Below, piece after piece: positions 6,952-10,564 of a stretch of 10,564 nucleotides of DNA (positions within the stretch are counted from its first letter, which is position 1; each line of letters starts with the position of its first letter). Source of the DNA: a virus; UHGV virus genome UHGV-1326494. The stretch is one strand, 5' to 3'. The translations under genes and the position numbers were made by a program. The notes beneath the pieces are model-generated. The model saw only the letters and a program-made list of their open reading frames with translations. It made no database searches and was not told the DNA's origin.

Positions 6952-7602
6952 ATGAAAACTCAATTGATGGGAGAGCGCATTCGCGCTCGGAGAAAAGAAC
7001 TCAAGATCAGGCAGGCCGCACTTGGAAAGATGGTCGGCGTGTCTAATGTTGCCATATCTCAGTGGGAACGCTCTGAGACAGAGCCAAATGGAGAGAATCT
7101 TCTCGCCCTGGCTAATGCGTTGAAGTGTTCCCCTGACTATCTGATGAAAGGAGAGGAAAGTCTTTCAAACATTGCCTATCACAGTAGGCATGATCCAAGA
7201 GGGTCATACCCTCTGATTAGCTGGGTGAGCGCAGGATGCTGGATGGAAGCTGTAGAACCATATCATAAGCGTGCAATAGATAACTGGTACGATACAACCG
7301 TAGACTGTTCAGAAGATTCGTTTTGGTTGGACGTGAAGGGAGACTCAATGACGGCTCCGGCCGGTCTCAGTATCCCTGAAGGAATGATAATACTCGTCGA
7401 TCCTGAAGTAGAGCCGCGTAACGGGAAACTGGTAGTTGCAAAGCTCGAAGGAGAAAACGAGGCAACTTTCAAGAAGTTAGTTATTGATGCAGGCAGGAAG
7501 TTTCTAAAACCACTTAACCCACAATATCCGATGATCGAGATCAACGGAAACTGCAAAATCATCGGCGTAGTTGTCGATGCAAAACTAGCAAACCTTCCAT
7601 AA
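6952..7602 (+). CDS. c2: Prophage repressor, P22 c2 / lambda cI family (216 aa) with HTH N-domain and LexA-like autocleaving C-domain
   Basis: ORF track 216 aa. N-terminal HTH (QAALGKMVGVSNVAISQWERSE) and C-terminal S24 peptidase-like domain (AG cleavage region, VKGDSM serine motif, a K near the C-terminus). Length matches P22 c2. Confidence 0.9.
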   Translation: MKTQLMGERIRARRKELKIRQAALGKMVGVSNVAISQWERSETEPNGENLLALANALKCSPDYLMKGEESLSNIAYHSRHDPRGSYPLISWVSAGCWMEAVEPYHKRAIDNWYDTTVDCSEDSFWLDVKGDSMTAPAGLSIPEGMIILVDPEVEPRNGKLVVAKLEGENEATFKKLVIDAGRKFLKPLNPQYPMIEINGNCKIIGVVVDAKLANLP

Positions 7603-7629
7603 GGGGGCATTCGCCCCTTTTTTTTATTT
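7601..7629 (+). terminator. Intrinsic terminator immediately after the repressor gene
   Basis: Hairpin aagggggc-attc-gcccctt (7601-7619) followed by a T-run (to 7629). It overlaps the repressor stop codon. Confidence 0.7.
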
Positions 7630-7649
7630 CCTTTAAAAATCAAAGCCAA

Positions 7650-7722
7650 ACTTAAGTTACGAAAGAAAATTTAAGTTTTCTTCAAAAATACTCTTGACCA
7701 TTAATTAAAGAGATCTTAAATT
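7650..7722 (+). promoter_or_regulatory. OL/PL region: PL promoter with an embedded operator
   Basis: -35 TTGACC (7694-7699), 17-bp spacer, -10 TAAATT (7717-7722). Operator-like site attaaagagatcttaaat (7703-7720) sits in the spacer. Further TTAAG/CTTAA half-sites at 7650-7680 are candidate extra operators. Confidence 0.6.
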
Positions 7723-7767
7723 TAAGCCATCAGCAGGACGCTGGTAGCCAAACGGAACAGATTGGCA

Positions 7768-7809
7768 GGCTCTTTAACATTGATGGGATTGTCCCGCCGA
7801 AATGCGGGA
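7768..7809 (+). promoter_or_regulatory. nutL: boxA plus boxB hairpin downstream of PL
   Basis: boxA GGCTCTTTAACA (7768-7779). boxB stem cccgc (7793-7797), loop cgaaat (7798-7803), stem gcggg (7804-7808). The RNA is identical to the nutR boxB transcribed from the opposite strand. Confidence 0.6.
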
Positions 7810-7980
7810 ACCAAAGAGTAGTTGGCTTTGGGGTGTGGTGAAGGGTTCATGGACGGGAATATGTCGCACGTAAAGCGGCGAGGCCTGCGGAACTATTGCC
7901 GAATTGAAGTCGGACGAAGCGGGTCGAAATGGGTCTCCCACCTACCACACCACCAAAGCTAATCATCTGAGGAACAAAAA

Positions 7981-8100
7981 ATGTTAGACATCATGACCAA
8001 CCCAATTCTCGGTGGTTTAGTTACCACATTCGCCATCTGCTTCGGTTTCACTATCTGGTCTGAAGTAGATGACTGGATGTGGGAACGCAAAAACAAATAA
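7981..8100 (+). CDS. Candidate small hydrophobic protein (39 aa) in the PL leader between nutL and the N-like gene
   Basis: ATG at 7981 preceded by GAGGAA at about 7 nt. MLDIMTNPILGGLVTTFAICFGFTIWSEVDDWMWERKNK has one predicted transmembrane segment. No homology claim. Confidence 0.3.
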   Translation: MLDIMTNPILGGLVTTFAICFGFTIWSEVDDWMWERKNK

Positions 8101-8140
8101 TCATCGTCACACAAGGATGTGTACCTTCCCGGAGGTCAAC

Positions 8141-8413
8141 ATGACAGTAGTCATTACATATCTGGCTGACGATAATGCCAGAAATCGCCGCAGAGCACGC
8201 AGACAGGCTCAACGTGAACAGGCAATGCAAGAGCAGCGACTGGCGCGAAAAATTGCGCTAAAGCTCTCTGGTTGCGTCAGAGCAGACAAAGCAGCATCAC
8301 TCGGAAGCCTTCGCTGCAAGAAGGCAGATGAATGCAGTGGAAGTATTTGCCTGCCAAACGTAGCTCTTTACGCGGCAGGCTACCGGAAATCAAAACAACT
8401 GACAGCGAGGTGA
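8141..8413 (+). CDS. N-like transcription antitermination protein (90 aa from the GGAGG-supported start; alternative 114-aa form from ATG 8069)
   Basis: GGAGG 6 nt upstream of ATG 8141. Arginine-rich motif NARNRRRARRQAQREQ near the N-terminus. The C-terminus (...VALYAAGYRKSKQLTAR) resembles what I remember of P22 gene 24. Located downstream of PL and nutL. Confidence 0.75.
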   Translation: MTVVITYLADDNARNRRRARRQAQREQAMQEQRLARKIALKLSGCVRADKAASLGSLRCKKADECSGSICLPNVALYAAGYRKSKQLTAR

Positions 8414-8435
8414 CGATCCCCGCGCCGTCGAGGAA

Positions 8436-8975
8436 CTAAATTAGCTCATCAGCTTTACCAGCAAAGCGCATATAACACTCATGGAACCAGACGTCAGGTA
8501 TAACAAATTTCTCTTTACCTGACGCGCTGTAAGTCACACCTGAGCGATGGAGAAGGCCTTTTCTCATAAGAGATAAAGCGACCGGATCGCCGTGCTTAAG
8601 TACGATTTTGTTATTTGCCATAACAGCAAATGCTAAAACCTCTTTTTCCTGAATACTCAGAGAATTGAATAGGCGCTCAGTCTCCACAATTACTTTAGCC
8701 TCATCTATCTTACTGAGATATTTTTTATATCTGTCTGAAGATGCCAGAAATATAAACTCCACCCCCCTGTTCAGAACATAACTGATACACAAAAGCATTG
8801 CGTAATACATCCAGTGATCTGGAAGTATTTCGGGGTTCCTTATATCTACCCACTCTTTAATTGATGCTGGGGTGATTATTATCAAGGTAATTAAAATAAT
8901 AAGCATATGAATTAACTGTTGTAGCGTAAGACCACGCAGGAAGAAACGTAATAGTTCCTGCCACCAGTTACTCAT
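8436..8975 (-). CDS. Membrane protein antisense to the PL operon (179 aa); superinfection-exclusion SieB-like by position and architecture, family not confirmed
   Basis: ORF track 179 aa. GGAG about 8 nt upstream of the ATG at 8973-8975. Two predicted TM segments (LIHMLIILITLIIIT and WMYYAMLLCISYVL) followed by a soluble domain. The gene is visibly AT-rich compared with its neighbours and is convergent with the N-like gene. Confidence 0.65.
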   Translation of the reverse strand: MSNWWQELLRFFLRGLTLQQLIHMLIILITLIIITPASIKEWVDIRNPEILPDHWMYYAMLLCISYVLNRGVEFIFLASSDRYKKYLSKIDEAKVIVETERLFNSLSIQEKEVLAFAVMANNKIVLKHGDPVALSLMRKGLLHRSGVTYSASGKEKFVIPDVWFHECYMRFAGKADELI

Positions 8976-8995
8976 CGGTGAATCTCCATCATTCT

Positions 8996-9043
8996 CTCTG
9001 TAGGGGTGAATAGAGTTTATCCGATTTCTCGCTGTAGGGGTAC
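8996..9043. repeat. Direct repeat pair upstream of the antisense membrane-protein gene
   Basis: ctgtaggggt at 8998-9007 and again at 9032-9041, 34 bp apart. Extended match tcNctgtaggggt. Confidence 0.5.
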
Positions 9044-9237
9044 ACGAGAACCACCGAGCCTGATGTGGTTAAAAGACAGGCATACGAATAAACACTGCAC
9101 TGTGTATTCATTCCAACGAGTGAATACACGGAGCAATGTCGCTCGTAACTAAACAGGAGCCGACTTGTTCTGATTATTGGAAATCTTCTTTGCCCTCTAA
9201 TGTGAGGACGATTTTTTATCTGTGAGGATATGAACAG

Positions 9238-9606
9238 ATGTCAAACATCAAAAAATACATCATTGATTACGACTGGAAAGCATCAATAGAAATTGAAATC
9301 GACCATGACGTAATGACAGAGGAAAAACTTCACCAGATTAATAATTTCTGGTCAGACTCTGAATACCGACTCAATAAACACGGCTCTGTATTAAATGCTG
9401 TATTAATCATGCTGGCGCAACATGCTCTGCTTATAGCAATTTCAAGCGACTTAAATGCATATGGTGTTGTGTGTGAGTTCGACTGGAATGATGGAAATGG
9501 TCAGGAAGGATGGCCTCCAATGAATGGTAGCGAAGGAATAAGAATTACCGATATCGACACATCTGGAATATTTGATTCAGATGATATGACTATCAAAGCC
9601 GCCTGA
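9238..9606 (+). CDS. ea10: Ea10-like protein (122 aa)
   Basis: ORF track 122 aa with GAGGA upstream. AT-rich. Position between the N region and cIII, and the length, match lambda ea10. The identity is from memory and position, not a search. Confidence 0.6.
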   Translation: MSNIKKYIIDYDWKASIEIEIDHDVMTEEKLHQINNFWSDSEYRLNKHGSVLNAVLIMLAQHALLIAISSDLNAYGVVCEFDWNDGNGQEGWPPMNGSEGIRITDIDTSGIFDSDDMTIKAA

Positions 9607-9681
9607 GCGCGGCTTTACCGCATACCAATAATGCTTCACGAGAGGCATTTTCGTTATGCAATCAAATATAAGGAGTTACCC

Positions 9682-9816
9682 ATGATGCACTTTCAGCTCG
9701 CGGGTAGCGGCGTCATGTCCGCTTTCTACCCGCACGAATCTGAATTATCACGCCGAGTTAAACAATTAATCAGAGCAGCAAAGAAACAACTGGAGGCGTT
9801 ATGCGCAATGAAATAG
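9682..9816 (+). CDS. cIII: cIII-like FtsH (HflB) protease inhibitor (44 aa)
   Basis: AAGGAG 6 nt upstream of ATG 9682. MMHFQLAGSGVMSAFYPHESELSRRVKQLIRAAKKQLEALCAMK resembles the lambda CIII core (..AG....PSESLLERITRKL..) as I remember it. The ORF-track version (61 aa) starts further upstream without an RBS. Confidence 0.55.
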   Translation: MMHFQLAGSGVMSAFYPHESELSRRVKQLIRAAKKQLEALCAMK

Positions 9817-9953
9817 CCATCAATCACCAGATGCTTCGTGCTGCACAGAACAAAGCAGTAATAGCCAGATTTATTGGTGATTCCAAAATGTGGCTTGAAG
9901 CAAATAAAGCGATGAAATCAGCTATCAACCTTCCGTGGTATCGCAGGAAATGA
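9801..9953 (+). CDS. kil: Kil-like small protein (50 aa), candidate host cell-division inhibitor
   Basis: ATG 9801 preceded by GGAGG. It overlaps the cIII-like 3' end, as kil overlaps cIII in lambda. MRNEIAINHQMLRAAQNKAVIARFIGDSKMWLEANKAMKSAINLPWYRRK; the FIGD.KM segment resembles remembered lambda Kil. Confidence 0.5.
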   Translation: MRNEIAINHQMLRAAQNKAVIARFIGDSKMWLEANKAMKSAINLPWYRRK

Positions 9954-10028
9954 GTTTTACAGATAACTGGTCAGACGAAGAATTCATTCGTCAGATGAAA
10001 GAATTAATCGGTAACGAAGGAGATATTC

Positions 10029-10199
10029 ATGTCACTTGCAACCACAGTGAAGGAGAGCAAGTTACAGAGACGCATGTACACGCAGCAGGCGTTAATGTAT
10101 CGCCAGAAGGGAGATCGTGAAGGTGTTCGCGTATTTTTAAATGCGGCAAAGACTGAAGTATTAAATCAGCGTTATTTCCTTGGGCCATGTCCATTCTGA
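10029..10199 (+). CDS. Candidate small protein (56 aa) between kil and the annealing-protein gene; Arf-like position
   Basis: AAGGAG (10017-10022) 6 nt upstream of ATG 10029. MSLATTVKESKLQRRMYTQQALMYRQKGDREGVRVFLNAAKTEVLNQRYFLGPCPF. An alternative overlapping frame (9950-10120, 56 aa, ATGA-coupled to the kil stop) is equally possible. Confidence 0.3.
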   Translation: MSLATTVKESKLQRRMYTQQALMYRQKGDREGVRVFLNAAKTEVLNQRYFLGPCPF

Positions 10200-10207
10200 G
10201 GTGAATT

Positions 10208-10564
10208 ATGGATTTGAATAAATTCGATGAGCCATTCAGCCCTGAAGATATCGAATGGCGAATACAGCAAAGCGGTAAAACACGCGATGGCAAGGTGTGG
10301 GCTATGGTGCTGGCTTATGTCACGAACCGGGCAATCATGAAACGCCTGGACGATGTTTGCGGCAAAGCAGGCTGGCGCAATGAATACCGCGATATTCCCA
10401 ACAACGGCGGCGTTGAATGCGGCATATCAATAAAGATTGATTCCGAATGGGTAACCAAATGGGATGCCGCTGAAAACACGCAGGTAGAAGCCGTCAAAGG
10501 CGGTCGTTCCGGTGCAATGAAGCGTGCTGCCGTTCAGTGGGGAATCGGTAGGTATCTGTATAAC
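10208..10564 (+). CDS. Single-strand annealing recombinase, Rad52-like (N-terminal 119 codons; continues beyond window end)
   Basis: GAGGTG 5 nt upstream of ATG 10208. The frame is open to the window end. The ...GAMKRAAVQWGIGRYLY segment resembles the Rad52-family ...A.KRA...FGN.LGN.LY motif. It occupies the position of bet/erf in lambdoid recombination modules. Confidence 0.6.
   Translation, partial: MDLNKFDEPFSPEDIEWRIQQSGKTRDGKVWAMVLAYVTNRAIMKRLDDVCGKAGWRNEYRDIPNNGGVECGISIKIDSEWVTKWDAAENTQVEAVKGGRSGAMKRAAVQWGIGRYLYN

Follow-up and report, generated by a model that had tools for sequence, protein, structure and literature searches.

The gap between sieB and ea10 in a lambdoid prophage: candidate homologues of the antisense RNA sas and the small RNA PreS, with a structure-conserved hairpin between them

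The stretch of DNA analysed here, called the window, is a 10,564-nucleotide (nt) piece of the virus genome UHGV-1326494 representing the immunity and early-left (PL) region of a lambdoid prophage, and its element under study is the 262-bp gap at 8976-9237 between the starts of sieB and ea10. This gap is most probably a compact set of RNA-level control elements that have already been described in the phages P22 and lambda. On the minus strand, 8976-9082 would hold the sieB promoter (PsieB), with the RNA start at 9007, and a 32-nt leader, while on the plus strand the PL transcript of the same segment would yield the antisense RNA sas (about 105-127 nt), pairing with the sieB translation start. 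By this pairing, sas would shut off SieB and allow the internally initiated Esc, so that an induced or infecting phage escapes its own exclusion. From 9083 onward there would be a junction, where lambda has ral and the window nothing, then a structure-conserved hairpin of the PL transcript (9092-9139) ending at the first nucleotide of PreS, then the small RNA (sRNA) PreS, also called LPR1, terminated at tL2a (9131-9218), and lastly the translation start of ea10 (9221-9237).

The preliminary description of this gap had recorded a direct repeat, a 10-bp hairpin and a pair of near-repeats, none of them explained by the coding features, and had offered a regulator-binding site, a terminator or processing site before ea10, or a small RNA. 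Part of this menu survives, namely small RNAs (sas over the repeats, and PreS between the hairpin and ea10) and a terminator, tL2a, but the hairpin is not that terminator, and no sRNA had been placed between the hairpin and the near-repeats, where PreS lies. Explanations were also available, as PsieB is annotated in the P22 record BK000583, sas is published for P22, and PreS and tL2a are published for lambda. The content of the gap is in this sense already known, from P22 PsieB and sas (1993), lambda tL2a (1983) and PreS (2024). Three features for which no published explanation was found in the literature consulted are worth a note: the hairpin 5' of PreS, the apparently co-evolving repeat, and the reuse of the sas hairpin and its adjoining block with other genes. 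Like the seed-variant relatives of PreS, which also go beyond that literature, they were recognised by sequence comparison. A literature search with the block, seed and hairpin sequences returned only the P22 small non-coding RNA (sncRNA) paper and one unrelated paper.

The sas homologue was located by means of P22A-sas, an RNA of 127 nt defined by RNA sequencing, whose sequence is printed in a 2026 study of P22 (PMC13397905). This RNA starts at the complement of the sieB start codon, crosses both repeats and ends just past ...AAAAGACAGGCA (PMC13397905), and it aligns to positions 8971-9097 of the window, with 92.0% identity up to the end of a 32-nt block and 96.7% over 8992-9082. The homologue at 8971-9082 lies on the plus strand, which is the PL strand, and is antisense to the translation start of sieB (ATG at 8975-8973, minus strand), covering the start codon, the Shine-Dalgarno sequence and the 5' untranslated region (UTR) and running beyond the sieB RNA start. 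In its strand, its location with respect to the start of sieB, the two repeats, the hairpin and the 32-nt block it agrees with P22 sas, and the Esc start is also kept; it differs in its 5' 20 nt, antisense to the leader and the start codon, which follow the window's own sieB allele. The sequence after the block differs too, because P22 has ral there.

The sas hairpin is predicted to fold as UUCUCG-C-UGUA-GGGG-UACA-CGAGAA at 9026-9050 of the plus strand, and directly after it comes the 32-nt block CCACCGAGCCTGATGTGGTTAAAAGACAGGCA (9051-9082, plus strand), which forms the 3' part of sas and, read on the minus strand, lies upstream of PsieB. This near-invariant block is unchanged or nearly so in ten phages of three host genera (E. 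coli, Salmonella and Klebsiella), and its right edge is a mosaic boundary. A putative H-type pseudoknot, CCAC..GCCUG..GUGG..CAGGC, can be drawn within it; the search pattern by which the loci were gathered holds these bases constant. In P22, Ranade and Poteete reportedly described in 1993 that sas blocks the synthesis of SieB, with the internally started Esc still being made, by which the phage escapes its own exclusion; this account of sas function is drawn from secondary sources. Judging from the identity of 92-97% and the conserved Esc start, sas would function likewise in this prophage, and in E. coli phages generally.

Regarding the promoter, BK000583 annotates a 'sieB promoter' (921-951 of our locus L083) and a 'sieB RNA start site' (L083 position 914), and both were transferred to the window through that sequence, as the two are identical from 8994 to 9064. 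PsieB thus falls at 9014-9044 on the minus strand, with the -10 element TAAACT at 9019-9014 and a weak -35 region, TGTACC, at 9044-9039, followed by a predicted sieB 5' UTR of 32 nt (8976-9007, minus strand) with the RNA start at 9007 and the Shine-Dalgarno sequence GGAGA at 8987-8983. The presence of a weak sigma-70 sieB promoter and leader on the minus strand of 8976-9082 is in this way shown by homology. Compared to P22, the window shows no difference between the -35 region and +14, a segment that includes the -10 element TAAACT and the start base, whereas the leader past +14 and the ribosome-binding site belong to another sieB allele. The lambda sieB promoter was likewise assigned by homology to P22 (BK000583 annotation), and a sensitive BLAST search with 8990-9090 found this stretch in Salmonella, E. 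coli and Klebsiella phages. A scan for sigma-70 promoters and terminators called nothing within 8976-9237, which says little, because its thresholds miss the weak PsieB as well as the weakened tL2a described below.

The counterpart of the P22 Esc start is the in-frame internal Met24 of the window sieB (ATG at 8906-8904, read as CAT at 8904-8906 of the plus strand), in agreement with BK000583, where esc begins 24 codons inside sieB; the HMLIILI context of this methionine is conserved and matches the P22 esc start. In one related locus (L330), foreign DNA with an insertion-element-like start and a transposase-like reading frame lies in the sieB leader directly after GGTGAATCT, at about window position 8985, separating sieB from its promoter and from sas.

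The direct repeat CTGTAGGGGT is present at 8998-9007 and 9032-9041, 34 bp apart, as first described, and the window contains no further occurrence on either strand. If one mismatch is allowed, the repeat can be lengthened to a 16-mer, at 8992-9007 and 9026-9041. Among 2000 dinucleotide shuffles of 8976-9237, 40 contained an exact 10-mer repeat, and a 16-mer repeat with at most one mismatch was obtained in 1 of 300. The proximal copy, TTCTCTCTGTAGGGGT (8992-9007), read on the minus strand, corresponds to the first 16 nt of the sieB mRNA, ACCCCUACAGAGAGAA, so that its 10-mer core is +1 to +10 and the extended copy +1 to +16. The distal copy, TTCTCGCTGTAGGGGT (9026-9041), overlaps the PsieB -35 region and, on the plus strand, contributes the 5' arm and the loop to the sas hairpin. 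Conservation of the 10-mer in relatives, proposed as a check in the preliminary description, is indeed seen, as both copies are kept in lambda, P22, HK620 and Klebsiella phages. Many contigs carrying this sieB allele (L333-L343 and L351) have a longer G-run in the proximal copy, with 5 or 6 G in place of the 4 at window positions 9003-9006; this is the C-run just after the sieB RNA start, and could be a real length variation or an assembly artefact.

The repeat may then be understood as a footprint of this arrangement of PsieB and sas, one copy being the first 10-16 nt of the sieB mRNA and the other the loop and 5' arm of the sas hairpin, with its overlap of the -35 region. We infer that the loop copy would be kept identical so that the loop of the sas hairpin can serve as a nucleation point for pairing with the sieB mRNA at its 5' end. 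In the IS10 pair RNA-OUT/RNA-IN, the antisense RNA has a stable hairpin whose loop is complementary to the very 5' terminus of its target mRNA, the place where pairing would begin. The mechanism proposed for the repeat would resemble this arrangement, as a functional analogy only, the sequences being unrelated; moreover, the loop copy of the sieB system is a duplicate located upstream of the mRNA start, which would give a second complementary site besides the cis-antisense one.

The same hairpin and block seem to be used well beyond sieB. A pattern scan for the 32-nt block gave at least 120 loci (L090-L209; for example L090 3678-3708, minus strand), and among the matches listed, to which the variant counts below also refer, the block and hairpin stand upstream of dozens of unrelated 'moron' genes on the opposite strand, several SieB alleles being among them. 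Ten cargo proteins were sampled; they fall in eight PHROG families of unknown function, and two had no match. In one mapped locus, the early-left strand reads repressor, small gene, opposite-strand cargo, block and early-left genes up to int, the slot being the same as in the window. Of the 45 distinct variants, 42 are predicted to form a hairpin immediately 5' of the block, with 18 different complementary outer stems, and in 39 of the 45 the plus-strand fold is more stable than the minus-strand fold. A simple criterion (6 or more pairs, the last of them no further than 4 nt from the block) also holds for 44% of shuffles, so that the sas hairpin is argued here from the diversity of its complementary stems and the asymmetry between strands.

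Two mutually exclusive architectures can be distinguished among these loci. In the single-hairpin one, the block ends on the cargo strand in TGGTATnCT, an extended -10-like motif, in 35 of 35 variants, and the Shine-Dalgarno sequence and ATG of the cargo follow 36-42 nt after it. In the duplicated one, that TAT is absent from 29 of 29 variants and a second loop copy lies 32-35 nt downstream; in most of the 28 duplicated variants that were tabulated, the proximal copy has a TAnnnT -10 element 5-6 nt before it. Four repeat families were found, ACCCCTACAG, TCCCCAACAA, TTCCACAGTCAAA and ATTCCCCAAC, with the copies matching within each and a spacer between copies that looks related across the four. 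In both architectures, the cargo mRNA would start with a sequence complementary to the loop of the antisense hairpin. In addition, single-hairpin loci carry a conserved GC-rich stretch of about 130 nt, some 10-60 nt after the block (L090 3289-3640, minus strand, and similarly L091, L098, L102, L169 and L087), which reads ...GTGAATGCGGCTCAGCGCACGCGG...CACCGGGAGGCACCCGGCACC... and looks like a structured RNA, with no Rfam match; that it is an antitermination (put-like) RNA is only a guess.

These comparisons bear on a different explanation of the repeat, in which the two copies are operator-like protein sites regulating PsieB at -35 and +1. The copies do sit at about -34 to -25 and +1 to +10 of an annotated promoter, the poor -35 hexamer makes an activator conceivable, and their conservation and joint change across lineages would be expected of two sites for one protein as well. 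However, no such regulator of the sieB promoter was annotated or mentioned in the literature found, direct repeats 34 bp apart face different sides of the helix, and 35 variants of the cassette have a single copy. Furthermore, the hairpin containing the distal copy has a covarying stem and folds better on the plus strand, which points to RNA rather than duplex DNA; the covarying stem is left unexplained by a pair of protein sites. The operator explanation is thus unlikely.

The other half of the gap is occupied largely by PreS. Silverman et al. (bioRxiv 10.1101/2024.10.31.621285) described PreS (LPR1) as a Hfq-bound lambda sRNA located between ral and ea10, about 88 nt long with a processed form of about 68 nt, whose 3' end is the tL2a terminator, and which is made in the lytic cycle and absent in lysogens. 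Its unpaired seed pairs with the host dnaN mRNA, opening the ribosome-binding site, so that dnaN translation is raised and more beta clamp is made; it also lowers alaS and supports phage DNA replication (bioRxiv 10.1101/2024.10.31.621285). The cloning and in-vitro-transcription primers of that preprint (P810, P1103 and P1104) give the RNA ends as GAGCAATGTCGC... and ...GATTTTTTA, which place an 88-nt orthologue at 9131-9218 of the plus strand. It is identical to lambda at 85 of 88 bases (96.6%) without gaps, including the whole 5' part, and so falls within the preprint's own definition of conservation (at least 92% identity to lambda LPR1 and at most 3 gaps); its fold has a z of -3.4. The seed TGTTCTGATTATTGGAA (9166-9182, plus strand), delimited by the seed-deletion primers P970/P971 and the M1 primers P838/P839, is identical to that of lambda, and the CTG changed in the published M1 mutant corresponds to 9170-9172 (bioRxiv 10.1101/2024.10.31.621285). 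A search for the 16-nt seed pattern over 596 Gb of contigs gave chance matches in unrelated phyla, the pattern being too short.

The 3' end of PreS is formed by tL2a (9190-9217, plus strand), with a stem of 9190-9197 paired to 9204-9211 followed by T6 at 9212-9217, and the authors of the HK620 sequence annotated 'tL2A' at the homologous site. All three differences between the window and lambda PreS fall in this terminator hairpin, and one of them, from GAGGGC to GAGGAC (window 9204-9209), produces a C-A mismatch in the stem, with a fold energy of -7.0 kcal/mol against -12.9 in lambda. Because of this weakened stem, the yield of PreS or its binding to Hfq could be lower here. Overall, the likeness to lambda consists of the same PL-strand position just before ea10, the identical seed and a GC-rich stem with T6, the kind of 3' end found in Hfq-dependent sRNAs, and the differences are the three terminator substitutions, one of which breaks a stem pair, and the lack of ral upstream. 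Consequently 9131-9218 is best read as a PreS orthologue, to which Hfq binding, lytic expression and the effect on DnaN would carry over from lambda.

Directly 5' of PreS lies the hairpin, whose 10-bp arms TGTGTATTCA (9101-9110) and TGAATACACG (9121-9130) are present as originally described, the RNA helix being longer than had been noted. The feature at 9092-9139 of the plus strand has a 14-bp core, 9100-9113 paired with 9118-9131 around the loop CAAC, beyond which 3 + 3 further pairs are formed across two 1x1 mismatches, giving about 20 pairs over 22 positions. Its fold energy is -25.4 kcal/mol (z = -5.8), and none of 200 shuffles folds as well. G9131, the 5' nucleotide of PreS, is at the same time the 3' partner of the pair that closes the core. 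The hairpin is present and nearly invariant in all of about 60 distinct variants bearing PreS, while the DNA to its left is unrelated between them.

A second type of hairpin occupies the same place in other phages, seen first in two contigs, then in 86 loci by a scan, and also in phage P22. Both types share the left flank CGAATAAGCA plus 2 nt, a distance of 9 nt from ACGAGU to GAGCAAT, and the ACGAGU segment itself, located at the junction of the loop with the 3' arm (the 3' half of the loop and the first bases of the 3' arm), together with its pairing partners. When the two types are placed in register, 98.2% of the cells are paired, in comparison to 24-51% in slid controls, and 8 of 11 pairs are changed on both sides; the pairs were counted on a re-cut alignment, MAFFT alignments having placed the hairpins out of register. 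Covariation, which the preliminary description had proposed to look for together with conservation, is thus found: the structure is kept, with eight of the eleven pairs compensated in the second type. These eight double changes are hard to explain other than by selection for pairing. One invariant pair is U-G, which the complementary strand would turn into an A-C mismatch, so that the hairpin belongs to the PL transcript.

Alternatively, the hairpin could matter at the level of duplex DNA, where it would serve a protein as a palindromic site or mark the module boundary as a recombination hot spot, considering its perfect 10-bp inverted arms beside a mosaic junction that has received many different inserts. 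A protein site would nevertheless conserve sequence, whereas the two types differ at 8 of 11 pairs and stay paired, sharing only the ACGAGU segment and its partners; the invariant U-G pair would be lost as a pair on the opposite strand, and the mosaic junction lies 10-15 nt left of the hairpin, at CGAATAA(A/G)CAC. A role as duplex DNA is therefore improbable, somewhat more so than the operator explanation of the repeat. Even less can be said for a terminator of the PL operon or of an upstream unit, to which a strong stem-loop in a region with an annotated cluster of tL2 sites might point. The AU-rich stem continues into GAGCAAUG on the plus and GUGCAGUG on the minus strand and was not listed by the terminator scan; since no U-tract follows on either strand, it was rejected as an intrinsic terminator. 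Besides, the annotated tL2A comes only about 80 nt later, where PreS ends, the upstream inserts bring their own terminator, GGCCGCATAGTCGGCCTTTATTTTT, and the hairpin stays with PreS and not with the upstream gene, so that this explanation is highly improbable. A PreS promoter inside the hairpin was also considered and rejected, as no plausible -10 and -35 elements precede either type and PreS is absent in lysogens.

Given the lack of a U-tract and of promoter-like hexamers and the purely lytic expression of PreS, the hairpin is taken as part of the PreS unit within the long PL transcript. Our guess is that it would define or insulate the PreS 5' end, as a processing signal or as a fold insulator. 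RNase III, whose sites have about two turns of duplex RNA, may act on the long form of the window, with its approximately 20 pairs; searching the literature for sites of this enzyme in the PL operon brought no useful result. RNase E prefers U-rich sites, which the sequence at the junction of hairpin and PreS does not resemble. On the role of the hairpin at the PreS 5' end, the preprint is silent (bioRxiv 10.1101/2024.10.31.621285).

The near-repeats before ea10 have fared less well as an element of their own. The 8-mer TGTGAGGA does occur at 9201-9208 and 9221-9228, but as a repeat it is at chance level, being found in 561 of 2000 shuffles, and its two occurrences have separate explanations: the first (9201-9210) is the end of the loop and the 3' arm of tL2a, and the second (9221-9230) contains the ea10 Shine-Dalgarno sequence, GAGGA (9224-9228, plus strand), read from the sequence 9 nt before the ATG at 9238. 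The segment with this Shine-Dalgarno sequence occurs only where ea10 follows PreS, being replaced when another gene follows (HK620 and others). That the repeats and the hairpin are all chance features of an AT-rich spacer is barely credible, since, although the 8-mer is at chance level and the 10-mer alone is mildly unusual, the 16-mer is rare among shuffles (1 of 300), the hairpin has a z of -5.8, and both are conserved across phages of three host genera despite unrelated flanks.

PreS itself also seems to have relatives. Among the loci with the second hairpin type (L354-L438 and, in P22, L439), 42 continue into canonical PreS and 47 into a diverged relative, in which the 5' GAGCAATNTCGCTCGTAAC is kept, the seed is ACTCGTTCTGGTTATTGG or ..GGTTAATCG, and a different GC-rich terminator follows. 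The PreS-like gene of P22 (L439 427-573; BK000583 28726-28872, minus strand) is located in the spacer of orf87 and gene 17. It is 70% identical to lambda PreS and keeps the 5' 19 nt, its seed is altered, it has a terminator of its own, and the hairpin upstream of it is of the second type; it is neither annotated in BK000583 nor among the ten P22 sncRNAs of PMC13397905.

Between the two halves of the gap, the module junction was mapped to 9083-9091, the left flank CGAATAA(A/G)CAC of the PreS unit beginning at 9085. BLAST against phage records aligned window 8998-9082 to lambda 34480-34396 (94%) and window 9086-9650 to lambda 34056-33492 (97.7%). Lambda carries a 339-bp insert with orf28 and ral between these pieces (L001 1586-1924), which is lacking in the window at 9083-9085, and in related contigs the junction holds ral, several other small genes or nothing. 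Because ral is absent upstream, a distance of only about 50 nt separates PreS of the window from the sas end. None of the complete E. coli RefSeq genomes has this sieB allele in direct junction with PreS and ea10, the four best matches carrying ral; IMG/VR locus L335 does show the arrangement.

Regarding the gene context, five genes of the window were identified by Pfam: a S24/HTH cI-like repressor (6952-7602, plus strand), the N antiterminator (8069-8413, plus), sieB for superinfection exclusion B (8436-8975, minus; 179 amino acids; PF14163 SieB, E = 3.4e-19), ea10 (9238-9606, plus; 122 amino acids; DUF2528, PF10800, E = 1.4e-46, in agreement with the lambda annotation) and cIII (9631-9816, plus). 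This order indicates that the plus strand is the direction of the PL operon, and sieB is the sole gene of the five in the opposite orientation. The gap had been called divergent, with an ea10-like gene on its right, and rightly so, sieB running leftward from 8975 and ea10 rightward from 9238 with its DUF2528/Ea10 match. The 1251-bp stretch 8400-9650 that contains the gap has a match in 2256 of 5426 complete E. coli genomes. A scan of 7600-10564 against Rfam, with E up to 10, gave no match inside 8976-9237, and seven related loci gave unrelated matches only; sas and PreS are evidently absent from Rfam 15. Elsewhere in the window, a strong intrinsic terminator, AAGGGGGCATTCGCCCCTTT followed by a T-run, lies directly after the repressor gene (7601-7620), and its counterpart in VT1-Sakai is annotated as the terminator of the PRM transcript. 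Another terminator-like hairpin, AATGCTTCACGAGAGGCATT followed by TTCGTT (9630-9649), overlaps the first codons of the cIII open reading frame called at 9631 and is homologous to the HK620 site annotated tL2B.

Several points weigh against this reading of the gap as control elements known from P22 and lambda. Every functional statement for this prophage is transferred from one of those two phages, and the nucleation of pairing by the sas loop is an inference only. The covariation of the hairpin reflects only two lineages, and the second type, with 11 bp, is short for RNase III, so that its cleavage by this enzyme is less likely. The published 5' end of PreS may not be exact to the nucleotide, and the coincidence of the hairpin end with +1 could be off by a few bases. 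In addition, GAGGAC appears in none of the approximately 60 other PreS variants compared, most of which read GAGGGC, and tL2a of the window was not called by the terminator scan.

The value of these results is mainly one of annotation, as a seemingly non-coding stretch would hold two regulatory RNAs, partly read on both strands, one of which, PreS, reprograms the host replication clamp, as published for lambda. The side observations would matter more than the annotation, if confirmed. Taken together, they allow a broader proposal, for now tentative and with somewhat more to be said against it than for it, in which the sas module would be a portable cassette silencing any lysogen-expressed cargo through PL antisense RNA, and PreS would be a family with alternative seeds, to which the P22 gene belongs, each member having upstream a structure-conserved hairpin by which the 5' end of the sRNA is set or insulated. 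If this is true, the reusable antisense cassette would represent a general rule for silencing lysogen-expressed genes on induction, and the seed-variant relatives of PreS, once confirmed, would suggest that different phages tune different host targets.

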